62,124 nucleotides of DNA from a virus: positions 1 to 62,124 of the IMG/VR virus record IMGVR_UViG_2710723518_000006; one strand, written 5' to 3'. Below the pieces are notes generated by a model. It saw only the letters and a program-made list of their open reading frames with translations. It was not told where the DNA came from and searched no databases. The position numbers and the translations under genes were made by a program. Shown here piece after piece: positions 1 through 62,124 of the stretch; position 1 is the stretch's first letter; the number at the start of each line of letters is the position of its first letter.

Positions 1-240
1 GACGCATCGTCCAGCGACGCTCGCCTCAGCGACGCTCGCCTCAGCGACGCTCCGTTCAGCGACGCTCCGTTCAGCGACGCTCCGTTCAGCGACGCTCCGT
101 TCAGCGACGCATCGTCCAGCGACGCTCCGTTCAGCGACGCATCGTCCAGCGACGCTCCGTTCAGCGACGCTCCGTTCAGCGACGCTCCGTCCAGCGACGC
201 ATCGTCCAGCGACGCATCGTCCAGCGACGCATCGTTCAGA
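1..240. repeat. 15-bp tandem repeat array, 16 units of four sequence types; the coding core of the pentapeptide-repeat gene, continued at 61936-62124
   Basis: Units gacgcatcgtccagc, gacgctcgcctcagc, gacgctccgttcagc and gacgctccgtccagc lie head to tail from nt 1. The last unit (226-240) is degenerate. Confidence 0.97.
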
Positions 241-380
241 ATTGCACGCCGGCCCCCTTCCCGTCCCAGTAGCCACGCCCGATGCTCGGTGAGCACATTC
301 GCCAATTCCTCCGGTGTCGGCTTCCAGCCCGGTTCGCCGCGTTGCGGTTTGCGGTCAGCTATCTGTGATTCGCTGCTCAT
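1..380 (-). CDS. Pentapeptide-repeat protein, N-terminal part (ATG 380-378; runs off the window start and resumes at 62124)
   Basis: Translation reads MSSESQIADRKPQRGEPGWKPTPEELANVLTEHRAWLLGREGGRRAILNDASLDDASLDDASLDGASLNGAS..., with A-x-L-x-x periodicity. There is an ATGA overlap with the stop of the upstream ORF. Confidence 0.85.
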   Translation of the reverse strand, partial: MSSESQIADRKPQRGEPGWKPTPEELANVLTEHRAWLLGREGGRRAILNDASLDDASLDDASLDGASLNGASLNGASLDDASLNGASLDDASLNGASLNGASLNGASLNGASLRRASLRRASLDDA

Positions 381-631
381 GATTTCGCGCTCCTAATTTG
401 CCACTTCTTCCTCTGATTTTCCGCCCACCTACTCACGCTGTCGAGCGGCCCGTGCACATTGATCTGCGGCCGCGCGCCGTTCGTCCGTGGTAACCGCTCG
501 ACCAGTGCCCGTCGTAGCAGGCAGTCGCAACGCTCGACGATTTCTAGCAGCCGTAGCTCACGCTCGATTCGCTGGGCGTGGTCGATAACGCGGCGACGTC
601 GGCGGCGTTCGTAGATGGCTTCTGGTATCAT
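377..631 (-). CDS. Small basic protein, paralog of 61534-61800; function unknown
   Basis: ORF-track protein from the ATG at 631 (MIPEAIYERRRRRRVIDHAQRIERELRLLEIVERCDCLL...RPQIN...RKKW). It shares the IxRELxxLEIVERCxCLL and RPQIN...QRxKW blocks with the 61534-61800 ORF. The transcript may be leaderless. Confidence 0.6.
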   Translation of the reverse strand: MIPEAIYERRRRRRVIDHAQRIERELRLLEIVERCDCLLRRALVERLPRTNGARPQINVHGPLDSVSRWAENQRKKWQIRSAKS

Positions 632-639
632 GGTTTCAA

Positions 640-669
640 AGAATATCAAATTTACTATTGCACAGTCAA
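640..669 (-). promoter_or_regulatory. Candidate leftward sigma70-type promoter (TTGACT-N18-TATTCT) ending 8 nt before the ATG at 631
   Basis: The minus strand reads ctactaTTGACTgtgcaatagtaaatttgaTATTCTttgaaaccATG in the AT-rich divergent gap. Confidence 0.4.
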
Positions 670-674
670 TAGTA
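653..674. promoter_or_regulatory. Perfect 8-bp inverted repeat TACTATTG-N6-CAATAGTA; candidate operator shared by the two divergent promoters
   Basis: Read directly. It overlaps both putative -35 elements. Confidence 0.5.
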
Positions 675-686
675 GATTGATATATT
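658..686 (+). promoter_or_regulatory. Candidate rightward sigma70-type promoter (TTGCAC-N17-TATATT)
   Basis: It lies in the AT-rich gap upstream of SD AGGAG (707-711) and the ATG at 722. Confidence 0.4.
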
Positions 687-721
687 TATTTCCGTCGATA
701 CGAAACAGGAGCCAAAAACGA

Positions 722-2999: not shown

Positions 3000-3967
3000 T
3001 CGACCAGGAAGTCACGGACAGATATGCGATTTACAACGGTGATTCTGCGGAAGTGCTGCAATCTATTCCGGATGAATCCGTAGGGTTGAGTATCTACTCC
3101 CCTCCGTTCGCGACGGAGAATGGAGGGGCACTGTACAATTACAGTTCGTCGCTCCGTGACTTGTCGAACTCGCGAACGTACAAGGAGTTTTTCGATCATT
3201 ACCGCTTTATTGTCGAGCACATTGCCCGCGTCACGAAACCCGGTCGCATCTCGGCAGTGCATTGCATGGACGTTCCGAAACAGGGAGCGAACATCTGCGG
3301 ATACTCCGACTTTCCCGGCCACATTATCGCTCTTCATGAATCGCTAGGCTTCGACTACTTACCGCGTATCTGCATATGGAAAGAACCGCTTGCCGTTCGA
3401 AATCGGACGATGGCAAAAGCTCTTGCCCATCGCCAGATCGTAGAGGATTCTACGAAGACGAACGTCGCGGCCGCCGACTACCTTATTCCGTTTCGCAAGC
3501 GAGGGGACAATCCGGAGCCGGTAGTGCATCCGACCGGACTATCTGAGTATGCCGGAGAGCGTACCGTTCCGGCCGAACTCCATCGCTATCGCAACTGGAA
3601 AGGAAACCAGATAGAGAACCGGTATTCACATTGGATTTGGCGGAACTATGCTTCGTGCTTTTGGGACGATATTCGTTTGGGTCGCGTGCTCCCCTACGAA
3701 GAGAGTAAGGACGAAGGTGACGAGCGGCATATGCACCCGTTGCAGTTGGATGTAGTGGAACGAGCAGTCATATTATGGAGCAATCCCGGCGACGTGGTAT
3801 TGACCCCATTTATGGGTGTTGGCAGCGAAGTGTACGGGGCGGTGACGGCCAGAAGAAAAGGCATCGGTATCGAACTAAAGCCATCGTTCTATCGTCAGGC
3901 AGTAAAGAATCTTCACAAAGCCGTTGAAGAGTCGTCGACCCACAAGGAGCAATTATTGTTTTCATAA
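2990..3967 (+). CDS. DNA methyltransferase, N4-cytosine/N6-adenine family (beta-class order: SPPF then FxGxG)
   Basis: SIYSPPF catalytic motif, followed late by HPLQLDVVERAVILWSNPGDVVLTPFMGVGSE. It overlaps the helicase stop by 10 nt. Confidence 0.85.
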   Translation: MAVIDQEVTDRYAIYNGDSAEVLQSIPDESVGLSIYSPPFATENGGALYNYSSSLRDLSNSRTYKEFFDHYRFIVEHIARVTKPGRISAVHCMDVPKQGANICGYSDFPGHIIALHESLGFDYLPRICIWKEPLAVRNRTMAKALAHRQIVEDSTKTNVAAADYLIPFRKRGDNPEPVVHPTGLSEYAGERTVPAELHRYRNWKGNQIENRYSHWIWRNYASCFWDDIRLGRVLPYEESKDEGDERHMHPLQLDVVERAVILWSNPGDVVLTPFMGVGSEVYGAVTARRKGIGIELKPSFYRQAVKNLHKAVEESSTHKEQLLFS

Positions 3968-4172: not shown

Positions 4173-4687
4173 CGTTCGACGAACTCCTCTCCGTGGTCCC
4201 TGGATTGCGGAAAGCCAGACGACTTAATGCCGCACTACTCCGAATCCTGCTCGATCGCCGACGACGCGAATGTACATGGTGTGGCATGACGGTGCCACGT
4301 GGCCGTATCGCGTGGTGTTCAGATAAATGCGTCGCTGATTTTCGTGAACGATGCGACCCGGCGGCATCTGTTAAGGCGGTATTTCGTCGCGATAATGGCC
4401 GGTGCCGACGTTGTGGCCGTGACGTAGAAAAATCAAAACGAGTGTATGTAGCCTACCTGCGTGACTGGCCGGGCAACTGGCGATATCCAGAACAGCATAA
4501 TAAGGTAAAGGTGATGCTAGGGTTTGGTCGCGGGGGATGGTGGGAGATTGACCACACGATACCGGTATGCGAGGGTGGCGGACTGTGCACGATCGATAAT
4601 CTGCGACTGATGTGTGGGGCGTGCCATGATGATGAGACTCGGAATCTATCGCGACGACAACGGCGACAGCGGGAGTTGAGCAAATGA
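4169..4687 (+). CDS. HNH endonuclease
   Basis: ATGA overlap with csrA. Motif WEIDHTIPVCEGGGLCTIDNLRLMCGACHDDETRN plus upstream CxxC pairs. Confidence 0.8.
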   Translation: MTFDELLSVVPGLRKARRLNAALLRILLDRRRRECTWCGMTVPRGRIAWCSDKCVADFRERCDPAASVKAVFRRDNGRCRRCGRDVEKSKRVYVAYLRDWPGNWRYPEQHNKVKVMLGFGRGGWWEIDHTIPVCEGGGLCTIDNLRLMCGACHDDETRNLSRRQRRQRELSK

Positions 4688-7500: not shown

Positions 7501-7747
7501 CCTGCCGCCGCTGCTGGACGACGACATCGACGAATGGCTACTCATATTAAAGGAGTCATCCTACGGCCAGATAAATCACCATCTGTTGACGCGGGACTGT
7601 GTACGAGTATTCGCCGAACTCCGTTGCCTACGTGTGGAGTTGGCAGCGGCTCTCGAAGTGCTGCAATCAATTGTTGCGTCCGACGGTGTTGTGTCGTTTC
7701 CATTGTTCGAGGAAATCGAAGGGGTACTTAAAAGACATGGCCGTTGA
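7490..7747 (+). CDS. Hypothetical acidic protein
   Basis: The ATG at 7490 overlaps the dcm end. Confidence 0.5.
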   Translation: MSDDLPPLLDDDIDEWLLILKESSYGQINHHLLTRDCVRVFAELRCLRVELAAALEVLQSIVASDGVVSFPLFEEIEGVLKRHGR

Positions 7748-8114
7748 CAACCTGCCGCCGCTGACGGACGAGGAATTTGCGATCCTACAGGGATTCCCCG
7801 CGTTTGTTCGTAGCAGCAAAACGTCTGCAAATATGCAAAAACTGGCTAACCATATCGAAAAAGCTGTAGCCGAACTCCGCCGCCATCGCGCGACGCTCCC
7901 GTGCGGGCATCCTGCTGGGTGCGTGCGAGGCGAGACTACGCTTTACTGCGGCTGGTGTGCGGACATGGTACGTCAGGCTGTAGTGGCGATCCACCAGGAG
8001 AAGCTGCCATGCGGGCATCCGGCGGGGTGCGTCGGCGATGATGGATCGTGCGGCTGGTGTAAGGATGCGGCTGATGCGGAAATCTATCGGTACTCGTTGA
8101 GGGCAAAAGGATGA
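7737..8114 (+). CDS. Hypothetical Cys-rich protein with internal duplication
   Basis: ATG at 7737. The block LPCGHPAGCV...CGWC occurs twice. Confidence 0.5.
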   Translation: MAVDNLPPLTDEEFAILQGFPAFVRSSKTSANMQKLANHIEKAVAELRRHRATLPCGHPAGCVRGETTLYCGWCADMVRQAVVAIHQEKLPCGHPAGCVGDDGSCGWCKDAADAEIYRYSLRAKG

Positions 8115-8512
8115 GCGACAAAATCGACTGGGACGCGGTGCAGGCCGCGTGCGATGCGGCGACAAAAACGCCTTGGTATCTTGACGAAATTGACAACATT
8201 GGCAACGAGTTGACTGTCGATCTAAGCCGGGTGTCATACTCTGGCGACGTCGTTATCGATACGTTGCAGCATCACGATGCCGTATTTGTCCATCTCGCCC
8301 GCACCGCACTCCCCGCCGCGTTGGCGGAGCGGACGCGTCTACGGGAGTTGCTGCGATCGCTCGAATGGAGCGGTATCTACAGCTATTGCACCGGTTGGCC
8401 GTGCTGTCCGGTGTGTAAAGGAATCAAGCCCGGAGTCGGTGAAGACAATCCGCCCACGTACCAACGCCATCATGTGAATTGCCGGTTAAAGGAGGCTCTC
8501 CGCGATGACTGA
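8111..8512 (+). CDS. Hypothetical protein (RLRELL family)
   Basis: ATGA overlap. ERTRLRELLRSLEW plus a Cys cluster CCPVC. Confidence 0.5.
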   Translation: MSDKIDWDAVQAACDAATKTPWYLDEIDNIGNELTVDLSRVSYSGDVVIDTLQHHDAVFVHLARTALPAALAERTRLRELLRSLEWSGIYSYCTGWPCCPVCKGIKPGVGEDNPPTYQRHHVNCRLKEALRDD

Positions 8513-8705
8513 CGACGAGTATCTTGCGATGGCGAAGAACATTGCCTTTATGGGAATGCCAGATATGTCTGACAAGCTGCAAGAGTTGCTGGACGATCGG
8601 AAGCGGCTGCGGGAACTGCTTAGTCGCGTCGTGTCTAACGGCAACGAAGATTTGCTTCCGCTTGAGATTTACAACGACATTGGCAGGGAGTTAGGCTATG
8701 AGTGA
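8505..8705 (+). CDS. Hypothetical protein (RLRELL family)
   Basis: It overlaps the upstream stop. Motif DRKRLRELLSRV. Confidence 0.5.
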   Translation: MTDDEYLAMAKNIAFMGMPDMSDKLQELLDDRKRLRELLSRVVSNGNEDLLPLEIYNDIGRELGYE

Positions 8706-8958
8706 ACCAACCCGCGAAGAGATCGTGCAGGCGGTATGCGAGATGCTCGCCATCGACAACAACAGCACAATGCCCTTGACGGCAGTGACGACCCGAATGG
8801 AGCTGATTGAGGCCGCGGCGATCCGCTATCGTGACGTGTGCCGGGAGCAGGCGCGGTTGCGGGAGTTGCTGCGACGAACTGTTGACCATTTGTGCTCGCT
8901 AGATGACGAGGGTGCGCAGCTACAGGATGACATATTCCAGGAGATTGGTAATGCCTGA
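8698..8958 (+). CDS. Hypothetical protein (RLRELL family), paralog of the next gene
   Basis: MSEPTREEIVQAVCEML...AAIRYRDVCREQARLRELL. Confidence 0.55.
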   Translation: MSEPTREEIVQAVCEMLAIDNNSTMPLTAVTTRMELIEAAAIRYRDVCREQARLRELLRRTVDHLCSLDDEGAQLQDDIFQEIGNA

Positions 8959-9739
8959 ACCAACCCGCGACGAGGTTGTAGCGGCGGTGTGAGCGCTGCT
9001 ACCGTGCTGTTATCCAGTGTTCCTGGATGGCTACCCGGCATATGCTACAGATCGTTCTGGCAGTGATCTTCTCAGTGCCATCGAATCCGCCGCCCTCCGC
9101 TACCGCGACGTGTGCGCGGAGCGGGACGAATTGACACGAAAACTGGAAGTGATGCGTGCGGCTCTTGGATATAGCGTCGACGAACAGATTTTGTTGGCTG
9201 ATGAACTCGCCGCCACCCGCGCGACGATCGCGAAGCTGTTGGCAGTGCCGGACCAGCTTTCCGAGTGCGACCGGTTGCGACCTATCGCCTGCTACCGGAC
9301 GGCCTGGCCGAAATGCTGTGCGATTTTCAGGGAAGCCCTTCTCTCCATCGTTGACGATCCAGTCCACGGCCAGACGCACGGCGATTCCGCCGCGTGCGCG
9401 ACGGCGAACGCGGCGGATGAGCTGCGGCGGAAGGATGGGGAACGAATGAGCGATTATGGCGAGCCTTGGAGCGTAGACAAATGTTATGATCTGGTCGACC
9501 GCGACCAGAAAGAAGTAGCATTGGAGCATACTTCTTCGGAGCGATTCCGCCGTGCAGCCACTTGCGTCAATGGATGTTGTGGCATCGAGTCACCGGAGAC
9601 GACCGTGCCGGAGCTGGTGCGGCTGGTGCGACAAATGCTAGGTTTTATGACGGTTCCGCCAACCAATTTCGATCCCACTTTGCCACCTCCAGGAAAAATT
9701 GAAATACTGCTAGCAAAGTGCAAAATGGTGCCGGAATGA
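8951..9739 (+). CDS. Paralog of 8698-8958, interrupted by an in-frame TGA at 8990-8992; the uninterrupted ORF runs 9017-9739 from a GTG
   Basis: The ATG at 8951 gives MPEPTRDEVVAAV, then TGA, then the same frame continues ...SAIESAALRYRDVCAERDEL. The stop aligns with Cys14 of the neighbouring paralog. Confidence 0.5.
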
Positions 9740-35348: not shown

Positions 35349-37727
35349 TTACTTCACCACGTAAGGCATGAATGAACTCGTGCCGACGTTCGACGCGAGA
35401 CGGCAAGCGTAGGAAATTGCGTCGCAATTATGAACGAGTATGCCTGAAGAGAAGTATTCGTGATTGCCTTCAATCGTTAGATTGTAAACGACATGCCGCC
35501 CTGGCAAGATTGCTGGCAATTCTACCGCATGCACGCGAACAATTCTTTTGCTTTGCATACCGGCTGACAGAAAACACTTTTCCGCATGTTGCGCATATTC
35601 TGTTTTCGTTGTCGATCTTTGATTTACGACGTGACCTGAGACTGCATTTTCCTGAGCAAAACTTGCTCTTGCCAACATATTCATGACAGTAGTCTTTTCC
35701 GCATTCTGAGCATATGGCGCAACGACGTATTGCTTTTCCAAATCCGTGTTGTTTTGCATGACGCCGATGCCATTCTTTTCCCTCTGCTGATTGATGCCAT
35801 GCGACAGTAAGGTGACGTATCTTAGCAAGATGCTGCAAAGCTTTTGTTGTGGCGTAGTCTCCTCGCTCGCCATGAACCTTATGATGTTTTTCCGACGATA
35901 CACATTCAAGATTTGATATATCGTTGTTAAGGAAGTCTCCATCTTTATGATGGATATGGCATCCGTCAGGAATAGGGCCGTAATGAGATTTCCAGATTTC
36001 CTGATGAAGGTGCTGAATGCCTCTTTTAACGTGCCCGCCATGCGGCCGATAATATCTTCGATATGCCTCTTGTTTTGCTTCGGGATATCTCCGGAAGACA
36101 ATGCCGTTAAAAACGATTGATTCTGATTTAGCTCCTGATTTCCACATGGCACCATTGTATCTTCGTAAGAGATAGCGTCGAGTGGTATCCATCCACGATC
36201 AAGAGAAAATACGGGATGGTTTCTGGTCCCAACAAGTTCCATGCCGTTTGATAGTCGCACGCGACACACGGTTGCAGAATGGCTAGTTATTCCAGATGCG
36301 ACTACCTTTCTTGTTCCTGATCTTGTCGTAACAAAATCCCCTACGCGAATCGTGTCGATGCGACGTGGACCGCTCGGCGTACTGATTAGTGTATCCGCTA
36401 CAAAACATTGGTCATCGTGTGATCCGTCCGGAAACGCCAACAACTCCCTCTCAAATTCTGGCACCCACGCGGCATCTTTTGGTAGCCATACCTTCCCCTG
36501 CTCAAACTTTACCGACGCCGCCTGTGCCCGCACGATCTTGTCGCCCTTCGGATGGATCGGCCGGACCTGAACGCCCTGCCGATTAAGCAACTGAATCATG
36601 GCCCGCTGGTACGCCACGTCCTCGACCCCGACCCATTGCAGCCCGTACTCATTGACCAACGCCTTGATTCTCTCCAGCGTCTCCGGTGCCCCGATGCGGC
36701 CGCGGTAGCAGTGCCGGATGATGAGCGTCCCGGTACTGTCGTGCTCGCAGCACAGGATAACCGTGTAATCCGCCGACGTCGATTCGCTCACAGCCAGATC
36801 GACTACGCCGAACGGCAGGAACGAGCGTTGCGGGACGATGTTCGGACCAAGGATGTATTGCTGTTCCTGTGCCCGCCATGATTGGAACCATTCGCGCTTG
36901 AAAATGTTGCCGTCCGCCACCACGTCCCAATCGCCGTCGAGCAATTGCGCCCGCGTGATGTGGTCGAGGTGGCCCAGAGCCTGGACGTATTCCTCTTGGT
37001 CAAGGAACGGATTGTCACGCAGGCCGGCGGGAACGAATGTTCTCTTTAGACCAGGGTCAACGATGAATCGCTGTTTCACCCAGTCGTTGCCAATACCTCC
37101 AGGATTGCTTGCTGACAACATCCTGATAGGTATGCGACTCCCTTCAAGGCGACGGAGCCGACTGAACAAATATAGGTAATCCTCTTCTTTGAACTGCGTT
37201 AGCTCATCAAACACAACGGTCTGACATTCCATGCCTTGATAGCGGTAACGGTCGTTTCGCTGGTCGAGGTATCCGAACGTGATCGTTGCTCCGCTTGGGA
37301 ACCGCCAACGCTTGTCTGTCCCATTCCATGTCGCTCCGGACCCTTGCAGCCAATCGTGCGAGCGATCCATCAATGCCCCTGGCAATGCCAAGTCTGCATA
37401 AGTACGACGGAAGAGAATTGCGGAGTAATTAGGATGATGAACGTACTGCAAAACAGACATTAAAAGAACATCACTTTTCCCGGAACCTGCTGAACCTCCG
37501 TACAGTATTTCAGTGCTGTCCGTTCTTAGGAATGCCGTTTGCTTTGCCGTTGGTCGGTGTGGGCAGAATGGGATGATCGGCCGCGTGTCCATTGCTCGGA
37601 GCAACGTCGATAGTCTGTCCGTGTTGCCCGTCTTCAAGCAGGAGTCGATCGAGTTCCTCAAGAGCGATCGCTGCTTGCTCGGCAACGCCTTCAACGCTTC
37701 CCGGAGTTCCCGCCTCAACGTGGACAT
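35349..37727 (-). CDS. terL: Terminase large subunit, interrupted by an intein; start uncertain (ATG 37727 or 37592, GTG 37763)
   Basis: Walker A GGSAGSGKSD. The nuclease motif DGSHDDQ|...|CDAISYA is split by the intein. Third-position G/C is high in this frame upstream of 37600. Confidence 0.85.
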   Translation of the reverse strand: MSTLRRELREALKALPSKQRSLLRNSIDSCLKTGNTDRLSTLLRAMDTRPIIPFCPHRPTAKQTAFLRTDSTEILYGGSAGSGKSDVLLMSVLQYVHHPNYSAILFRRTYADLALPGALMDRSHDWLQGSGATWNGTDKRWRFPSGATITFGYLDQRNDRYRYQGMECQTVVFDELTQFKEEDYLYLFSRLRRLEGSRIPIRMLSASNPGGIGNDWVKQRFIVDPGLKRTFVPAGLRDNPFLDQEEYVQALGHLDHITRAQLLDGDWDVVADGNIFKREWFQSWRAQEQQYILGPNIVPQRSFLPFGVVDLAVSESTSADYTVILCCEHDSTGTLIIRHCYRGRIGAPETLERIKALVNEYGLQWVGVEDVAYQRAMIQLLNRQGVQVRPIHPKGDKIVRAQAASVKFEQGKVWLPKDAAWVPEFERELLAFPDGSHDDQCFVADTLISTPSGPRRIDTIRVGDFVTTRSGTRKVVASGITSHSATVCRVRLSNGMELVGTRNHPVFSLDRGWIPLDAISYEDTMVPCGNQELNQNQSFLTALSSGDIPKQNKRHIEDIIGRMAGTLKEAFSTFIRKSGNLITALFLTDAISIIKMETSLTTIYQILNVYRRKNIIRFMASEETTPQQKLCSILLRYVTLLSHGINQQREKNGIGVMQNNTDLEKQYVVAPYAQNAEKTTVMNMLARASFAQENAVSGHVVNQRSTTKTEYAQHAEKCFLSAGMQSKRIVRVHAVELPAILPGRHVVYNLTIEGNHEYFSSGILVHNCDAISYACRLASNVGTSSFMPYVVK
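35427..36407 (-). mobile_element. Hint-type intein (327 codons) in TerL
   Basis: It starts CFVADTLISTP, has GTRNHPVF (block B), and ends VYNLTIEGNHEYFSSGILVHN followed by the extein Cys. It is AT-rich. Confidence 0.85.
35470..36192 (-). CDS. HNH endonuclease ORF nested in the intein but in a different reading frame from TerL
   Basis: 240-aa ORF with its own ATG and TGA. HIHHKDGDFLNNDISNLECVSSEKHHKVH plus CxxC...CxxC. Its frame offset to TerL is 2 nt. Confidence 0.75.
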   Translation of the reverse strand: MDTTRRYLLRRYNGAMWKSGAKSESIVFNGIVFRRYPEAKQEAYRRYYRPHGGHVKRGIQHLHQEIWKSHYGPIPDGCHIHHKDGDFLNNDISNLECVSSEKHHKVHGERGDYATTKALQHLAKIRHLTVAWHQSAEGKEWHRRHAKQHGFGKAIRRCAICSECGKDYCHEYVGKSKFCSGKCSLRSRRKSKIDNENRICATCGKVFSVSRYAKQKNCSRACGRIASNLARAACRLQSND

Positions 37728-38136
37728 GGCTGTGGACGTGCTGGTGGAGTTCTGGTTGTTCACCTTTACCCGCCTTTTCCTTGTCGAGTTCCAGCCGCTC
37801 GCGGTCCATTTCGAGTTTTGCGATCGCGGCCGGAACCCGCATGGCCGCCCCGTAGTCGCGTGCCGATCCGTCCTGGACCGCCTGGGCGCCGAGCCGGAAC
37901 GCACCGGCCAGAACTTTCGCCGCCTGTTCCTCCGTCACGACGCCGCAAGAGAGAATCCGGGCCGCCAGCCGGGCGTCCTGTTTGGTTCTGTGCGGGTCGA
38001 ATAGCTCGCCCGTCCCGCCCATGCCGTCTGGCATCGGCGGCGGTTTCGGCAATGCCGCCAGTTCGGCCGCGTGCGGCGCGTTCACCTTCTGGTGCGCGGC
38101 TTTCTTGTTGCGGCGTTTTTGGCGTTTAGATGCCAT
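37510..38136 (-). CDS. Putative small terminase/packaging accessory protein (position-based only); its 3' part overlaps TerL
   Basis: MASKRQKRRNKKAAH... lies directly upstream of TerL. No family recognised. Confidence 0.4.
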   Translation of the reverse strand: MASKRQKRRNKKAAHQKVNAPHAAELAALPKPPPMPDGMGGTGELFDPHRTKQDARLAARILSCGVVTEEQAAKVLAGAFRLGAQAVQDGSARDYGAAMRVPAAIAKLEMDRERLELDKEKAGKGEQPELHQHVHSHVHVEAGTPGSVEGVAEQAAIALEELDRLLLEDGQHGQTIDVAPSNGHAADHPILPTPTNGKANGIPKNGQH

Positions 38137-52364: not shown

Positions 52365-52912
52365 GGGGTTCCTCCCTTCGCATGGGGTTGTCCTTTCGTC
52401 CGATCGTCGATCCTGTGGCATTCTGGGGCCTCTCGTGGGCATCCTGGTGCCTCTCGCGGATATTCCAGCCGGCCCTGGAGCCACTGGTCGTAATCGCAGA
52501 CCGGCCAGTCGACGTAGCCGAGGTGACCGGGCAGCAGGTGTGCCACGAGCGCGGCTTTGTGCTGCGCGACCAGTGGGCGGAATCTCGCGATATCCTCTTG
52601 ACGGCCGGCGAGTCGGATGCGAAAGTAGGCGGTGTCGGGGATGTATTCTGTTGGTGCTGCAGATGATGGCGGCTCAGAAACTCGAGTTTGTACAGTAGTG
52701 AACAAGTGTCTCTTGACAGTTTGTCCGGCATCCAGCCGCTCCATCTCCGGGCCGTCCGCAGGACCCCCCTCCGCGACCTCCCCCGATGGGGTGGCCACGA
52801 GGGAGCAGGTGATACCGCGAGCCGCGAGCAGATTGACGACCATCTGCGGCGTCATGGTCGCTGTCGGAGTTGCCGGGTTCTCCGGAGTCGCCGGAGTCAT
52901 TTTGCGACCCAT
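52361..52912 (-). CDS. Hypothetical protein; its N-terminal MTPATP repeat echoes the C-terminus of the primase-helicase
   Basis: MGRKMTPATPENPATPTATMTP... It is translationally coupled to the downstream gene. Confidence 0.45.
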   Translation of the reverse strand: MGRKMTPATPENPATPTATMTPQMVVNLLAARGITCSLVATPSGEVAEGGPADGPEMERLDAGQTVKRHLFTTVQTRVSEPPSSAAPTEYIPDTAYFRIRLAGRQEDIARFRPLVAQHKAALVAHLLPGHLGYVDWPVCDYDQWLQGRLEYPREAPGCPREAPECHRIDDRTKGQPHAKGGTP

Positions 52913-53063
52913 CTAAACCCAGTCCTCCACGATCTCGGTTGCCGGAGTCGCCGGAGTCGCCGGAGTCATTCCCCCTCCTACCCGTTTTTCATCCCCCTTA
53001 CCCCCCTCCCTTGAAAAACTCTGGTTAAGTGAAACGACTCCGGCGACTCCGGCGACTCCGGCG
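52865..53063. repeat. Clusters of a 9-bp unit CGGAGTCGC: two direct clusters (52865-52898, 52935-52967) and one inverted cluster (53036-53063)
   Basis: Read directly: ccggagtcgccggagtcgccggagtc versus gactccggcgactccggcgactccgg. Confidence 0.75.
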
Positions 53064-59760: not shown

Positions 59761-61167
59761 TCAAAAAGGGGGATCGTCCGGCCCGTCCGGCGCCGTCTGC
59801 CGATCCACGGCTGCCATGAGCGCGTCGATCAGTTCCGCCGCCTGTTCCGGCGTCAACTCCTTGGCGGACTTCACCCCACGTTTCGCGAGGATCTTCTCGC
59901 GGTAGGTTTCTCGCGGCATGCCGCCGGTCACCAGGTCGTTGACCAGTGCGACGATCTGGTCGAGTTGGTCTGAGTGTGGGCCGACGCCGGGAGTGATAGG
60001 TACGTTCAACGGGTCGGTCAGTTCAGAGGGAACGGCCGGCTCTGTGATGGCCGATGACGTGTCCGCTTCCGTCGTAGTTGTCGATTCTACTGTGGCCGGC
60101 TCCGCTGCGTCGTGCTGGCCGTTGCCATTGGCCTCCACGGGCGCAGTCGTCGCCGCGGCCGCTCCCCGTGGCTTCCGTGCCGGCTTCTTGTTGGCCGCGA
60201 GCCGGACCTGCCCCTCCAGCCAAGTGATCGTCTCATCAGCCTCGGTCGCCTTGAGTTGGTAGAGAGCGTCGCAACCGAATTTTTTCACGGTCTCAACTGT
60301 CACGCGGCCGATCTTCCACGAGAGTTGCTCTGCCAATTCCACGATTCGATTGCACTGGTCGTCGGTGCATTTCGGGGCGATCCGCGGCGGATCGGTGACG
60401 GTTCCGGTGTCGAGCCAGTCGATGATCGGAGCCATGAACCCGGCTCCCGCTTTGACGACTGTCAATCCATCGACGGACGGGCAGCGGGTTTTGGTCACGG
60501 TCAGGATGTGGGACCAGTCGAGCGATCCGTAAATGTCGAACTCGTACTCCATCCCCTGCCGCTGGATCGGGGCCATGCCGACTTTTCGAGGAACCTGTTT
60601 TGGTTTGCCGTCCTTGCCGGCCTGCTCTTCAAGGATGTACTCCGTCTTACTTCGCATCGTGCAGATGACGTGCGCGGTCGAATTGAGGATCGCGTCGACC
60701 ATCCGCCGGTGCATGGGCGTCACGTCCTTCCAGGCGGTGTAGCTGTTCCCTGGTGTCCTGCCCACCAACTCCAGGGAGCCGTCCTTCCCTTCCCACGCAT
60801 GGGAGAGGCTATCAACGATCACAACCTCGTACCCAGCACGGCACGCTTCCTCGATCGCCGCGGTGTACTCGGTCGGACTGAACGACGACAGGTGCAGAAT
60901 GTCGAACTCCCACGTCTGGCCGGCGTGGTCCGGGTCCGGCAGCCCGACGTACTTTTCCGCCGCGTCGTCGTCCTGGCTTCCCTCGGTGCCGATGACAGCG
61001 ACCTTACGAGACGGTGATAGCGCGAACGCGCATCGCAGAGCCGTGTACGTCTTGCCGCTGCCGCTCGGCCCGTCGATAGCCATGCGGAGCTTGAGTTGCC
61101 GCCTGGTCCCTTTGCGGAATCGTTTGCTGGCCACTGTGGCCGTTGCTGTTGCCGTTGCTGTTGCCAT
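59761..61167 (-). CDS. RecA-fold ATPase, Sak4/AAA_24-like, with a long C-terminal extension
   Basis: ATG at 61167: MATATATATATV...IDGPSGSGKTYTAL...VVIVDSLSHAWEG. Confidence 0.7.
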   Translation of the reverse strand: MATATATATATVASKRFRKGTRRQLKLRMAIDGPSGSGKTYTALRCAFALSPSRKVAVIGTEGSQDDDAAEKYVGLPDPDHAGQTWEFDILHLSSFSPTEYTAAIEEACRAGYEVVIVDSLSHAWEGKDGSLELVGRTPGNSYTAWKDVTPMHRRMVDAILNSTAHVICTMRSKTEYILEEQAGKDGKPKQVPRKVGMAPIQRQGMEYEFDIYGSLDWSHILTVTKTRCPSVDGLTVVKAGAGFMAPIIDWLDTGTVTDPPRIAPKCTDDQCNRIVELAEQLSWKIGRVTVETVKKFGCDALYQLKATEADETITWLEGQVRLAANKKPARKPRGAAAATTAPVEANGNGQHDAAEPATVESTTTTEADTSSAITEPAVPSELTDPLNVPITPGVGPHSDQLDQIVALVNDLVTGGMPRETYREKILAKRGVKSAKELTPEQAAELIDALMAAVDRQTAPDGPDDPPF

Positions 61168-61267: not shown

Positions 61268-61537
61268 TCAAACGTACTCGTCGATGTCCCGTGATCGCTC
61301 CTCTTCGCACTTACGGCAGTAGTGGGCACCATAGGCGTCCTCGCCGCAACTCAGGCAGTGCCACGGAGCAGTATCGGTTTCCTCCGACGGCCCCTCTTGC
61401 GCGAGAGCGATGAGCCGATTGCGTTCCTCCCAATCCGCCATGTCTCGCGCTCGGCAGGTTTCGCAGCATCCCGGCTGAAAAACACCGGCGGCCAATCGCG
61501 TCTCGCGGTGGCACACGCAACAGATAAACGTCGTCAT
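61268..61537 (-). CDS. Cys-rich zinc-ribbon protein
   Basis: SD GGAGG then ATG at 61537 (ATGA overlap). CCVCH...CCETC...CLSCG...CRKCE. Confidence 0.5.
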   Translation of the reverse strand: MTTFICCVCHRETRLAAGVFQPGCCETCRARDMADWEERNRLIALAQEGPSEETDTAPWHCLSCGEDAYGAHYCRKCEEERSRDIDEYV

Positions 61538-61800
61538 CGTCCTGCCTCCGCTGCCAGTCGTTTGCCGTCCGCCGTTACCGGGTGCCACTTCCGCCGTTGT
61601 TCCGCCAGCCAATCAGTCAATGTGCCGAGCTTGCCGGCCGGGTTGATCTGCGGCCGCGTGCCGCGTGCCCGCTTGGCTCCGAGCGATCGCCAGAGCAGGC
61701 ATTCGCATCGTTCGACGATTTCGAGCCGGTTAAGTTCCCGATCGATCCGCTGCGTGTGGTTCAGGACGCGGCGGAATTGGCGTGCTTCGTCGATGGTCAT
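61534..61800 (-). CDS. Small protein, paralog of 377-631
   Basis: ATG at 61800 (ATGA overlap with the pentapeptide gene stop): MTIDEARQFRRVLNHTQRIDRELNRLEIVERCECLL...RPQIN...QRRKW. Confidence 0.6.
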   Translation of the reverse strand: MTIDEARQFRRVLNHTQRIDRELNRLEIVERCECLLWRSLGAKRARGTRPQINPAGKLGTLTDWLAEQRRKWHPVTADGKRLAAEAGR

Positions 61801-62124
61801 TGGCTGCGTCCTTTTTTGATCGTCTCCCACTCCGCGTCGGTCAGGGCGCAGAGGATGTGCCCCGGCCCGCCAAGTGCGGCTGGCGAGAGGATTGCGCCGT
61901 CGATGTTAGCACCGCACCAGGAGCAAGCAATCAGCGACGCTCCGTTCAGCGACGCATCGTCCAGCGACGCTCCGTCCAGCGACGCTCCGTTCAGCGACGC
62001 TCCGTTCAGCGACGCTCCGTCCAGCGACGCATCGTCCAGCGACGCATCGTCCAGCGACGCTCGCCTCAGCGACGCTCGCCTCAGCGACGCTCCGTTCAGC
62101 GACGCTCCGTTCAGCGACGCTCCG
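61797..62124 (-). CDS. Pentapeptide-repeat protein, C-terminal part (enters from the window end; stop 61797-61799)
   Basis: ...ASLNGASLDDASLIACSWCGANIDGAILSPAALGGPGHILCALTDAEWETIKKGRSQ*. The frame is continuous with 1-380 once the 84-bp overlap is merged. Confidence 0.85.
   Translation of the reverse strand, partial: GASLNGASLNGASLRRASLRRASLDDASLDDASLDGASLNGASLNGASLDGASLDDASLNGASLIACSWCGANIDGAILSPAALGGPGHILCALTDAEWETIKKGRSQ
61936..62124. repeat. 15-bp tandem repeat array, 12.6 units; the last 84 nt duplicate nt 1-84
   Basis: Same four unit types as 1-240. 62041-62124 is identical to 1-84. Confidence 0.97.

Follow-up and report, generated by a model that had tools for sequence, protein, structure and literature searches.

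A phage pentapeptide-repeat gene with a near-perfect 15-bp array that is probably subject to resizing

The two ends of the window (the whole stretch of viral DNA analysed, 62,124 nucleotides) are parts of one minus-strand gene built from 15-bp units. The first 84 bases of the window recur exactly as its last 84, and merging the ends on this overlap yields a 624-nt minus-strand open reading frame encoding a 207-aa pentapeptide-repeat protein (PRP). It seems reasonably probable (about 0.6) that this is an early-expressed phage PRP composed of an N-terminal cap helix, a square beta-helix, four closing units and a conserved C-terminal module, the array of which is continually being resized. Phage PRPs are widespread and located in early or replication modules, with almost no assigned function, and the window gene is an ordinary but clear new example of this known kind.

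In the merged protein, a 47-aa N-terminal cap precedes 23 regular units, which are followed by four degenerate closing ones and, at the C-terminus, by a module of 25 aa; the solenoid units (23 or more, plus the closing four) run on without any insertion (Table 1). The 15-bp tandem repeat is detected at 8-239 and 61931-62124 (TRF scores of 310 and 269, respectively). The original prediction of 23 units of four sequence types was right in that the array is real and the 84-bp merge gives 23, but there are five DNA unit types, unit 1 being LNDAS (CTGAACGATGCGTCG), and the count of 23 is one solution only; the blocks of four LNGAS and two LRRAS that it described are both found in the unit table.

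Table 1. Features of the pentapeptide-repeat gene and its surroundings (window coordinates)
Feature	Position	Strand	Remarks
N-side array	1..239	-	Units 1-15 + first 12 nt of unit 16; order LNDAS, LDDAS x2, LDGAS, LNGAS x2, LDDAS, LNGAS, LDDAS, LNGAS x4, LRRAS x2, LDDA
N-terminal cap region of PRP gene	240..380	-	aa 1-47; predicted helix aa 23-40; ATG 380-378
84-aa gene, first of leftward operon	377..631	-	No family hit; paralogue of 88-aa gene across PRP gene
Divergent AT-rich intergenic 'switch region'	632..721	.	Promoter-like sites on both strands; 12-nt inverted repeat 649-660 / 667-678
AAA_24 ATPase (Sak4-like, phrog_1366)	59761..61167	-	First recognisable replication/recombination gene downstream
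Cys-rich zinc-ribbon protein, 89 aa	61268..61537	-	YacG matches sub-threshold only
88-aa paralogue of 84-aa gene	61534..61800	-	50% identity, E 4e-24; directly downstream of PRP gene
C-terminal module LGGPGHILCALTDAEWETIKKGRSQ + stop codon	61797..61874	-	Predicted loop + terminal alpha-helix aa 195-206
Closing units, four, degenerate (LIACS WCGAN IDGAI LSPAA)	61875..61934	-	Begin conserved subfamily C-terminal region [LWF]C.A.[IL]DGA
C-side regular array	61935..62124	-	Bases 62041-62124 = exact copy of 1-84; order ..GAS, LNGAS x2, LRRAS x2, LDDAS x2, LDGAS, LNGAS x2, LDGAS, LDDAS, LNGAS

The backbone codons (CTG..GCG TCG) are the same in 23/23 units and variation is confined to codons 2 and 3, of which the first, after Leu, encodes N, D or R and the second G, D or R (i.e. 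the unit reads A-S-L-[NDR]-[GDR]), in keeping with the family pattern of a central Leu or Phe and a small residue at i-2. Mean pairwise identity between units is 83.5%, the shortfall coming wholly from these two codons. In addition, the array contains an exact internal duplication (units 2-6 being the same as 16-20, at an offset of 210 nt), whose 88 nt exceed the 84-bp overlap on which the ends were merged, as well as a higher-order pattern of DDgNN blocks. Because of the perfect backbone codons, the multi-unit duplication and the block-wise pattern, recent slippage or unequal recombination, as had been proposed, is well supported on sequence grounds. Replication slippage, together with unequal homologous recombination in which single units or whole multi-unit blocks take part, would expand, contract and reshuffle the array, with every four units gained or lost amounting to one coil gained or lost. 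In PRP geometry the residues that vary here face outward, and Leu and Ala inward; the length of the rod and its surface pattern would change, with both caps remaining constant.

The protein is acidic (net charge -14, pI 4.3), a property contributed entirely by the array, and when the units were assigned to the helix's four faces (-6, -4, -2, -3) no clear charge stripe emerged. Positive selection on the window gene is not claimed, as the count of 0 synonymous versus 4 non-synonymous codon variants among its units is not significant (p ~0.2). Family-wide, 21% of codon variants are synonymous versus ~28% expected, which indicates relaxed constraint or mild diversification in these sequences rather than strong positive selection.

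That the product is a pentapeptide-repeat beta-helix, as originally suggested, was borne out by profile matches (PF00805 94.6 bits against a cut-off of 20.2, PF13576 56.1 against 27, PF13599 47.5 against 38) and by modelling, which predicts a right-handed quadrilateral beta-helix. The AlphaFold models (mean pLDDT of 68, with ~90 in the repeat region, and 75.6) show strands recurring at five-residue intervals between aa 47 and ~177, flanked by the two helices at 23-40 and 195-206, and the top Foldseek matches (PDB, BFVD) are all pentapeptide solenoids. The best PDB matches are synthetic consensus solenoids (beta1 / SynRFR; PDB 4yfo, 4yc5, 4ycq), with a sequence E-value of 4.8e-44 and a fold match of 1.0 A rmsd over 121 columns. 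In its degree of idealisation the natural array roughly equals repeats designed from a consensus. The synthetic solenoids, being designed, have other caps and no biological role.

Directly after the array, the window PRP carries the signature [LWF]C.A.[IL]DGA-x(6-7)-GGPGHIL[CY]ALT..EW..I..R. Its last 46 aa are 70, 67 and 56% identical to those of three orthologues, with 22 invariant columns, and relatives of the C-terminal module were found in 7 proteins (E 5e-20 to 1e-12), 46 metagenome loci and 1 MAG locus. Searches with the models of Pfam, PHROG, NCBIfam and PADLOC gave no match to the module, which is likewise missing from PHROGs and, by tblastn, from the entire set of 50,697 deposited phage records; by megablast, the right-hand 10 kb matched none of the deposited phages. 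The window gene is a member of a subfamily that lacks annotation, occurs in metagenomes only and is recognised by its C-terminal module. An exhaustive profile search gave 43,500 matches at E<=1e-3, dominated by giant PRPs matching few repeat columns, and was used only to extract ~30 further true subfamily members, not to estimate family size.

Across the ~50 loci and proteins with the module, between 1 and 45 in-register units precede it, and large differences occur between close relatives: 45 versus 8 units in a pair with flanks that are 93-95% identical (L028 and L036) and 14 versus 7 in a pair with 96-98% identical flanks (L013 and L021). In members of 69-89 aa, no more than 1-6 in-register units precede the closing ones, which in the shortest cases amounts to about one to two coils. 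Regular arrays of differing length thus recur throughout the subfamily, as they do in unrelated phage PRPs. Together with the window locus, these ~50 relatives put PRP beta-helices among the most length-labile coding repeats of phages.

The size of the array also differs among assemblies of the same phage. Assembly ERZ4903070 contains a complete 9-unit gene (137 aa), whose array is what remains of that of the window once the 210 nt lying between the two 88-nt repeats are taken out, whereas four other contigs of ~62 kb end inside the array with conflicting N-side and C-side readings. Compared to the window, two of the broken contigs and the 9-unit contig have flanks of 99.7-100% identity. In two assemblies with 100% identical flanks, the N side reads nDDgNN-DNDNNNN-RR-D.. 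and the C side ..DgNN-DNNN-RR-DDgNN-gDN (one letter per unit, cf. the orders in Table 1), and because these readings disagree the 84-bp merge is one solution among several. Either an array of 34 units (262 aa) or the coexistence of alleles with 23 and 20 units would account for the conflict. Array size among same-phage assemblies is 9 versus at least 23, and possibly 34, units, to which assembler effects may contribute.

It could also be that the copy number is stable and that the apparent variability, perhaps with some of the regularity too, comes from short-read assemblers collapsing, expanding or breaking a fixed array, an explanation that we consider unlikely. The array interrupts 5/6 of the ~62-kb contigs of the phage (the window included), a 3.3-kb JGI contig starts inside it, and the two assemblies with 100% identical flanks perhaps stem from the same or related data. 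Moreover, the 34-unit solution holds a repeat of ~150 nt (NNNRR-DDgNN), which is beyond reads of 150 nt, and the 9-unit form corresponds to a collapse across the 88-nt repeat. However, the 9-unit contig is a distinct strain, with 8 mismatches to the window in 2.9 kb of left flank, and the C-side reading, which differs from that of the N side by a 3-unit change, is the same from two assemblers. Furthermore, similar arrays and length differences occur in isolate phages, in near-identical isolates described in the literature and in a nanopore-assembled contig. Resizing of the array remains the preferred reading, and the variable length that had been predicted is seen between assemblies and close relatives, with the same-phage differences possibly being in part assembler behaviour. 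Against it stands that the 9-unit form is identical to the expected collapse product, and that several of the assemblies are perhaps from related samples.

The observation that the assembly 'breaks exactly here' was correct insofar as contigs do end in the array, but this reflects an unresolvable repeat and no biological end of the genome. PRP arrays break short-read assemblies at a predictable place, and the closure of a 'circular' viral contig within one of them does not fix the copy number. The merged 207-aa protein is absent from the protein collection, where the best match has 73% identity over 60% of the query, as would be expected if the gene is split in most assemblies.

Nucleotide-perfect arrays are found in cultured phages as well. 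The isolates BL94, RapA and Jess A (Caulobacter phages) have 22, 27 and 20 units, respectively, of the same four 15-mers between identical termini, and a further such array is present in Rheinheimera phage Barba17S. In phage GB2A, a PRP gene has a deletion of 375 bp (25 units) compared to near-identical Riverwalkvirus isolates (PMC11053796). Among other phage PRPs, P0012 and P0013 are exactly one unit apart, and a nanopore-assembled contig contains an array of the same nucleotide perfection. The premise that perfect units are unusual for PRPs therefore applies to cellular proteins of the Qnr/MfpA type, but not to phage PRPs such as those of BL94, RapA, Jess A, Barba17S and the nanopore contig. 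Like the window gene, the PRPs of cultured phages (Rauchvirus BL94 gp020, RapA gp021 and Jess A gp021, and Barba17S gp045) are made of near-perfect 15-bp units of 4-9 types that vary only at outward-facing residues and differ in number and order between close relatives. They lie in or beside the replication module (in Rauchvirus directly after DNA polymerase I) and are without reported function. They differ from the window protein in their N- and C-terminal domains, in lacking the GGPGHILCALT module and in having A-N/D-L-x-x rather than A-S-L-x-x as their unit.

As predicted, the gene is the second after the switch region and lies ahead of the replication genes, with the promoter region at 632-721 on one side and the AAA_24 ATPase, a RecD-like helicase and a primase downstream. 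Both of its junctions are ATGA overlaps, its start overlapping the stop of the 84-aa gene and its stop the ATG of the next gene, and an AGGAG Shine-Dalgarno-like sequence (390-394) precedes its start. A 42%-identical AAA_24 homologue adjoins the PRP orthologue in L028 and L036, and the PRPs of three unrelated phage subfamilies adjoin replication genes. In two further loci found via the AAA_24 neighbour (L009 and L010, 51-56% identity), a PRP gene is missing upstream, so that they give no information on synteny. PADLOC gave zero matches for the PRP and its small neighbours.

Because of its second place in a putative early operon, its translational coupling, the replication-gene neighbours of phage PRPs and one anti-defence precedent, the protein might serve host takeover or anti-defence by acting as a binder or decoy towards some component of DNA metabolism, although this is inferred more weakly than the resizing itself. 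By analogy, a variable protein-binding early or anti-defence factor is the most plausible role. The precedent is gene 24_60 of Vibrio phage 24, a PRP that is reported to counter the Sucellos defence system and of which residues are changed in escape mutants (bioRxiv 10.1101/2024.07.02.601686). It resembles the window gene in being a phage-encoded PRP and, as a likeness of role only, in setting a precedent for a variable binding surface, whereas its changes are point mutations and not changes in unit number. If the variable rod is indeed a binding or decoy surface, the locus would offer a simple and tractable system in which repeat number and a small residue alphabet tune the phage-host interaction.

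A more specific role had been proposed, namely that of a DNA mimic acting on gyrase or against restriction. Such a protein would be an acidic beta-helix rod that dimerises via its C-terminal helix and fills the DNA-binding saddle of gyrase or another DNA enzyme (restriction enzyme, RecBCD), a possibility that we rate as rather doubtful. The window protein is strongly acidic, its 207 aa are close to the size of Qnr (NCBIfam models of 211-221 positions) and MfpA (183), and a C-terminal helix is predicted after the solenoid, as in MfpA and Qnr (PMC10886550). In addition, the PRPs of several phage subfamilies lie inside replication modules, and the zinc ribbon two genes downstream has weak YacG-like matches. 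These matches, however, are below the cut-offs (Pfam 20.1 versus 25.5 bits, NCBIfam 16.1 versus 83 bits), and the PRP itself scores far below those of MfpA (NF000349, 51.5 versus 360 bits), Qnr (NF033086, 33.9 versus 240 bits) and the Qnr subfamilies (16-32 versus 425-500). Members of 69-89 aa with 1-6 units, as well as the 9-unit related strain, are too short to mimic ~30 bp of DNA, and net array charge is not conserved, the subfamily spanning values of -0.6 to +0.67 per unit. McbG and QnrB gave no relief of BREX in a published test (PMC7261183), which argues against PRPs being general anti-restriction mimics.

In the structural comparison with Qnr and MfpA, the beta-helix and C-terminal helix are both predicted. 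By sequence as well as by fold, however, the protein comes closest to cyanobacterial PRPs and to solenoids of a generic or synthetic kind, and the array lacks the loop insertions of Qnr. In Qnr, loops A and B interrupt the solenoid (as in the QnrB1 structures), and the repeats of Qnr, MfpA, AlbG and McbG are degenerate and fixed in number. The likeness to these proteins thus extends to fold class, the size of the 23-unit form, the acidic surface in the window and the helix after the solenoid, whereas the repeats of the window are perfect and variable, and the subfamily includes very short, neutral or basic arrays. The proposed mimic was not upheld, and the window PRP appears not to be a member of the Qnr/MfpA family, although this too is inferred more weakly. 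Annotation of such genes as Qnr-like resistance or DNA mimics is unwarranted.

It is very improbable that the 15-bp array is chiefly a DNA element (e.g. origin iterons or sites for the flanking small paralogues) with coding being secondary, even though it is a tandem direct repeat beside a divergent control region and replication genes, flanked by two paralogous small genes. The reading frame and homologous terminal modules are kept in ~50 relatives, in which the unit DNA differs (CTGACAGGCGCGAAC, CTGAGCGGGTCGAAC, CTCAGCGGGGCGAAC and others) and A-x-L-x-x is always retained; some orthologues have only few units, and no other tandem occurrence of the backbone 9-mer was found elsewhere. The iteron/origin reading was rejected, as orthologues preserve the peptide pattern with units that differ in their DNA.

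N/D/Y and S/R/C patterns in orthologues brought up the idea of a diversity-generating retroelement acting on adenines. Such targeted mutagenesis of units, although some orthologues have A in at least one variant at every variable position (e.g. CTC[A/C/T]GCG[G/A]GGCG[A/G/T]AC in L004), has next to no likelihood and is effectively refuted for the window, where the scanned ORFs (230-1007 aa) have no reverse transcriptase domain, a template-like second copy of the array is absent and the variable unit positions 6 (C/G) and 7 (G/C) are never A.

Beyond the continual resizing favoured here, it is conceivable, if speculative, that the GGPGHILCALT subfamily (and perfect-array phage PRPs in general) constitutes a recombination-driven diversity system without reverse transcriptase. 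In this system, a constant C-terminal effector or anchor would be combined with a beta-helix drawn from an alphabet of 3-5 15-bp cassettes, and its continual reshuffling and resizing would equip each phage population with a range of decoy or binding surfaces towards host defence or DNA-metabolism proteins. TAL effector repeats, with their variable di-residues, and the in-frame perfect tandem repeats of Borgs are tandem-repeat proteins under concerted evolution; the likeness, by analogy only, would lie in a conserved scaffold, few exposed variable residues and a unit number changed by recombination, whereas there is no relation in fold, in the length of the unit or in biology. One and the same residue repertoire, {N,D} followed by {G,D,R}, occurs on three unrelated codon backbones (those of the window, L002 and L058), which hints at convergent selection for the alphabet.

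Two 15-bp arrays were detected by Tandem Repeats Finder, one at each end of the window (8-239, 15.5 copies, score 310; 61931-62124, 12.9 copies, score 269), with no comparable array elsewhere in the whole window, which confirms that the repeat itself is real. The first 84 bases of the window equal the last 84 (the sole exact end overlap of at least 10 bases), and removal of the duplicate yields a 62,040-bp circle with a 624-nt minus-strand ORF encoding a pentapeptide-repeat protein (PRP) of 207 aa. The Leu, Ala and Ser codons are invariant in all 23 regular units, variation being confined to codons 2 and 3, and five unit sequences (including LNDAS) were counted rather than the four originally proposed. 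The merged array also contains an exact 88-nt duplication (units 2-6 equal units 16-20, offset 210 nt), which exceeds the 84-bp end overlap, and is strongly acidic (net charge -14, pI 4.3).

Features of the PRP gene and its genome, with unit backbones of related arrays
Feature	Position	Strand	Detail
PRP start ATG	380	minus	preceded by AGGAG, 390-394
PRP N-terminal region		minus	47 aa, merged ORF
PRP regular units		minus	23, ORF merged on the 84-bp overlap
Unit LNGAS			CTGAACGGAGCGTCG, 10/23
Unit LDDAS			CTGGACGATGCGTCG, 7/23
Unit LDGAS			CTGGACGGAGCGTCG, 3/23
Unit LRRAS			CTGAGGCGAGCGTCG, 2/23
Unit LNDAS			CTGAACGATGCGTCG, 1/23
PRP degenerate units		minus	4, after the regular units: LIACS WCGAN IDGAI LSPAA
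PRP tail	stop 61797-61799	minus	25 aa, LGGPGHILCALTDAEWETIKKGRSQ, merged ORF
Upstream partner gene	377-631	minus	84 aa, ATGA overlap with PRP gene
Downstream partner gene	61534-61800	minus	88 aa, ATGA overlap with PRP gene
Large terminase with intein	35349-37904		Hint_2 and Intein_splicing domains after nuclease domain
Primase	window		encoded
Mu-like portal, major capsid protein, two DNA methylases	window		encoded
RecD-like helicase, SNF2-type helicase, AAA_24/Sak4-like ATPase	window		encoded
Unit backbone, window			CTGAACGGAGCGTCG
Unit backbone, locus L001			CTGACAGGCGCGAAC
Unit backbone, locus L003			CTGAGCGGGTCGAAC
Unit backbone, locus L004			CTCAGCGGGGCGAAC

The product is a bona fide PRP (PF00805, 94.6 bits versus a cut-off of 20.2). 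Two AlphaFold models, from the single sequence (mean pLDDT 68, ~90 in the repeat region) and from a nine-sequence alignment (mean pLDDT 75.6), both place one strand per five residues from aa 47 to ~177 and helices at 23-40 and 195-206. The predicted structure is thus a solenoid, as originally expected, and its top Foldseek matches in PDB and BFVD are all pentapeptide solenoids. Among solved structures, the synthetic consensus 'beta1' solenoids come closest in both sequence (E 4.8e-44) and fold (rmsd 1.0 Å over 121 columns), and the natural array is thus roughly as ideal as a designed repeat. In standard nomenclature the unit reads A(i-2) S(i-1) L(i) [NDR](i+1) [GDR](i+2). Positions i and i-2 face inward in this fold, and the variable residues are therefore expected to be surface-exposed.

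The window is a tailed-phage genome. No tRNA genes were found in it, and none of the ORFs scanned showed a reverse transcriptase domain. The small genes on either side of the PRP gene are paralogous to each other (50% identity, E 4e-24), and each is translationally coupled to it through an ATGA overlap; they have no family match, and no fetched locus contained a homologue. The original placement of the PRP gene, second in a leftward operon and before the replication genes, was correct, since the spacer at 632-721 is AT-rich and carries promoter-like sites on both strands (4 versus 0.5 expected); a 12-nt inverted repeat is also present there.

The same phage was located in other public assemblies by exact-sequence look-up of the two flanking small proteins, and several of these assemblies may share related source samples. 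The fetched flanks of three other assemblies are 99.7-100% identical to the window. In ERZ4903070 k141_4021470 (61,971 bp; 8 mismatches to the window over 2.9 kb of left flank) the whole PRP gene lies inside the contig and encodes 137 aa, with a nine-unit array nDDgNNgDN (n, LNDAS; D, LDDAS; g, LDGAS; N, LNGAS; R, LRRAS). This is exactly the window array less the 210 nt lying between the two 88-nt repeats; the nine-unit form, from a strain slightly unlike that of the window, arose either by true recombinational deletion or by collapse in the assembler. ERZ27254846 k141_323170 (62,198 bp), ERZ28563591 scaffold_796 (62,137 bp) and SRR2090157_22585 (61,755 bp) break inside the array like the window, making at least four independent ~62-kb assemblies that begin and end within it, and a short JGI contig likewise begins there. 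Where such contigs are called 'circular' or assigned direct terminal repeats, the call depends on a repeat match, which does not fix the array length. The two furthest-reaching contigs read nDDgNN-DNDNNNN-RR-D.. from the N side and ..DgNN-DNNN-RR-DDgNN-gDN from the C side. Past the window's right end the C-side and N-side sequences disagree, so that the 84-bp overlap reflects the similarity of two blocks and is no proof of a unique junction. The original 207 aa and 23 units are indeed obtained by the 84-bp merge, which is only one solution; copy number is a more important correction than the count of unit types. The data fit either a single array of 34 units (n / DDgNN DNDNNNN RR / DDgNN DNNN RR / DDgNN gDN; 262 aa) or 23- and 20-unit alleles side by side. 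It is firm that assemblies of one phage differ in their array, which may also vary within the population.

The array shows backbone codons without variation, an exact duplication spanning several units, a higher-order pattern of blocks and length differences of whole units, in line with the slippage or unequal recombination originally proposed. Slippage and unequal homologous recombination among units and blocks probably expand, contract and reshuffle the array. Since one coil equals four units, the rod would change length, and its surface pattern would shift, while both caps stay constant.

The accompanying premise, that PRP repeats are degenerate in their DNA sequence, fails for phage PRPs. 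Locus L002 (a nanopore-polished 64.6-kb contig) encodes a different PRP of 24 units, 22 of which fall within four 15-mers, while gp045 of Rheinheimera phage Barba17S has 26 units of 9 types. In the Caulobacter Rauchvirus isolates BL94, RapA and Jess A the PRP gene immediately follows DNA polymerase I and holds 22, 27 and 20 units, respectively, built from four 15-mers common to all but differing in order, between identical N- and C-termini and flanks that are 97-99% identical. Two metagenomic proteins with identical termini (P0012 and P0013) differ by exactly one unit, and a 375-bp PRP-gene deletion in phage GB2A (PMC11053796) amounts to 25 units. Labile perfect arrays thus occur in cultured phages, where they were noted in passing; a literature search found no paper analysing them. 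The alphabet after Leu ({N,D}, then {G,D,R}) is common to the window, L002 and another locus (L058), on three different synonymous backbones. The window gene belongs to the phage PRPs with labile perfect arrays, within an unannotated subfamily.

In homology searches, true orthologues were marked by the C-terminal region rather than by the repeats ([LWF]C.A.[IL]DGA-x6-7-GGPGHIL[CY]ALT..EW..I..R). A profile of this module retrieved seven small proteins (69-89 aa), two IMG/VR loci, 46 metagenome loci plus one locus in a Planctomycetaceae MAG, and ~30 more representatives (88-312 aa). The module has no match in Pfam, NCBIfam, PADLOC or PHROGs and does not occur in any of 50,697 deposited phage genomes; the subfamily is known so far from metagenomes only. 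Its members carry at least three kinds of N-terminal cap and 1 to 45 in-register units ahead of the module (three in the loci encoding two of the seven small proteins, P0022 in L005 and P0021 in L024), with an array charge per unit of -0.6 to +0.67. Three loci hold tandem paralogues, two per phage (L008, 318-1282; L030, 2-1104; L051, 33-1075), one with ...ILYALT and the other with ...ILCALT in the C-terminal module, and with very unlike arrays.

Unit backbones differ from array to array, each being near-invariant internally, and 45 arrays form a continuum from near-zero synonymous variation (0 in the 23 regular units of the window; 0/115 cells with 14 distinct 15-mers in L034; 0/70 in L025; 0/72 in L016) to degenerate (36/171 in L030; 20/100 in L018). 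A continuum of this kind is expected where arrays are repeatedly amplified and homogenised within individual lineages and then decay. Unit number differs sharply between close relatives: 45 versus 8 units in L028 and L036 (flanks 93-95% identical), and 14 versus 7 in L013 and L021 (96-98%). A test for bias towards amino-acid change gave no significant result for the window alone (0 synonymous versus 4 non-synonymous codon variants, p ~0.2). The family-wide synonymous share (88/411, 21%, versus ~28% expected) points to weak constraint, or to mild diversification, where residues are exposed, and does not demonstrate strong positive selection.

The evolutionary interpretation is supported, and the functional one, a DNA mimic of the Qnr/MfpA/AlbG type acting on gyrase, is not. 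The long acidic forms may act in such a way, but family membership is not supported, given scores far below the cut-offs (MfpA 51.5 bits versus 360; Qnr 33.9 versus 240), an array without interrupting loops, and the few-unit subfamily members and the nine-unit form of the window gene, which cannot mimic a useful length of DNA duplex. A zinc-ribbon neighbour matches the gyrase inhibitor YacG below threshold only. A gyrase-type mimic is unlikely. Where context is visible in the subfamily, the PRP gene heads an early operon (L005-L007), lies immediately upstream of a family-A DNA polymerase (L008) or adjoins an AAA_24 homologue (42% identical; L028 and L036). That replication genes recur as neighbours is a weak pointer to a DNA-metabolism target. 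A role other than DNA mimicry has a precedent in the PRP of Vibrio phage 24 (24_60), reported to counter Sucellos defence, with escape mutations within the PRP (bioRxiv 10.1101/2024.07.02.601686). McbG and QnrB gave no relief of BREX in a published test (PMC7261183). The most plausible reading is that the gene encodes an early factor that binds proteins or acts as a decoy, with the beta-helix as variable surface and the C-terminal module as constant part. As an example the gene is instructive and open to testing, but not surprising.

Several further observations were made. The zinc-ribbon neighbour (61268-61537; 89 aa, two CxxC pairs) probably resembles YacG through generic zinc-ribbon similarity (Pfam 20.1 versus 25.5 bits; NCBIfam 16.1 versus 83). 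Phage-encoded CsrA homologues occur in the early regions of relatives (L001, 1326-1496, immediately after the PRP orthologue; L009, 3620-3808; L010, ~4260-4420). L009 also has a short GSGYG-type repeat ORF upstream of its AAA_24 gene (3350-3517), a position comparable to that of the window PRP gene, and L003 carries a TnpB/IS605 OrfB-like ORF (7504-9246; 580 aa, C-terminal zinc-finger motif) 1.3 kb downstream of the PRP orthologue. In the window, the N-terminus of the AAA_24 ATPase (MATATATATATVAS) is encoded by a 6/12-bp tandem repeat (61134-61165), which makes it the second short in-frame tandem repeat of this phage to lie at a gene start. At the 3' end of the primase ORF, a perfect 9-bp repeat (GCCGGAGTC, three copies, 52941-52967) and its reverse complement (CGACTCCGG, 3.2 copies, 53035-53063) flank a 67-bp C-rich spacer, and a degenerate third set lies at 52865-52898. 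These repeats encode MTPATPATPAT-type N-termini on the minus strand (ATG at 52969 and 52900), and possible explanations of the whole 52865-53063 stretch are an operator, an origin element or N-terminal TPA repeats.
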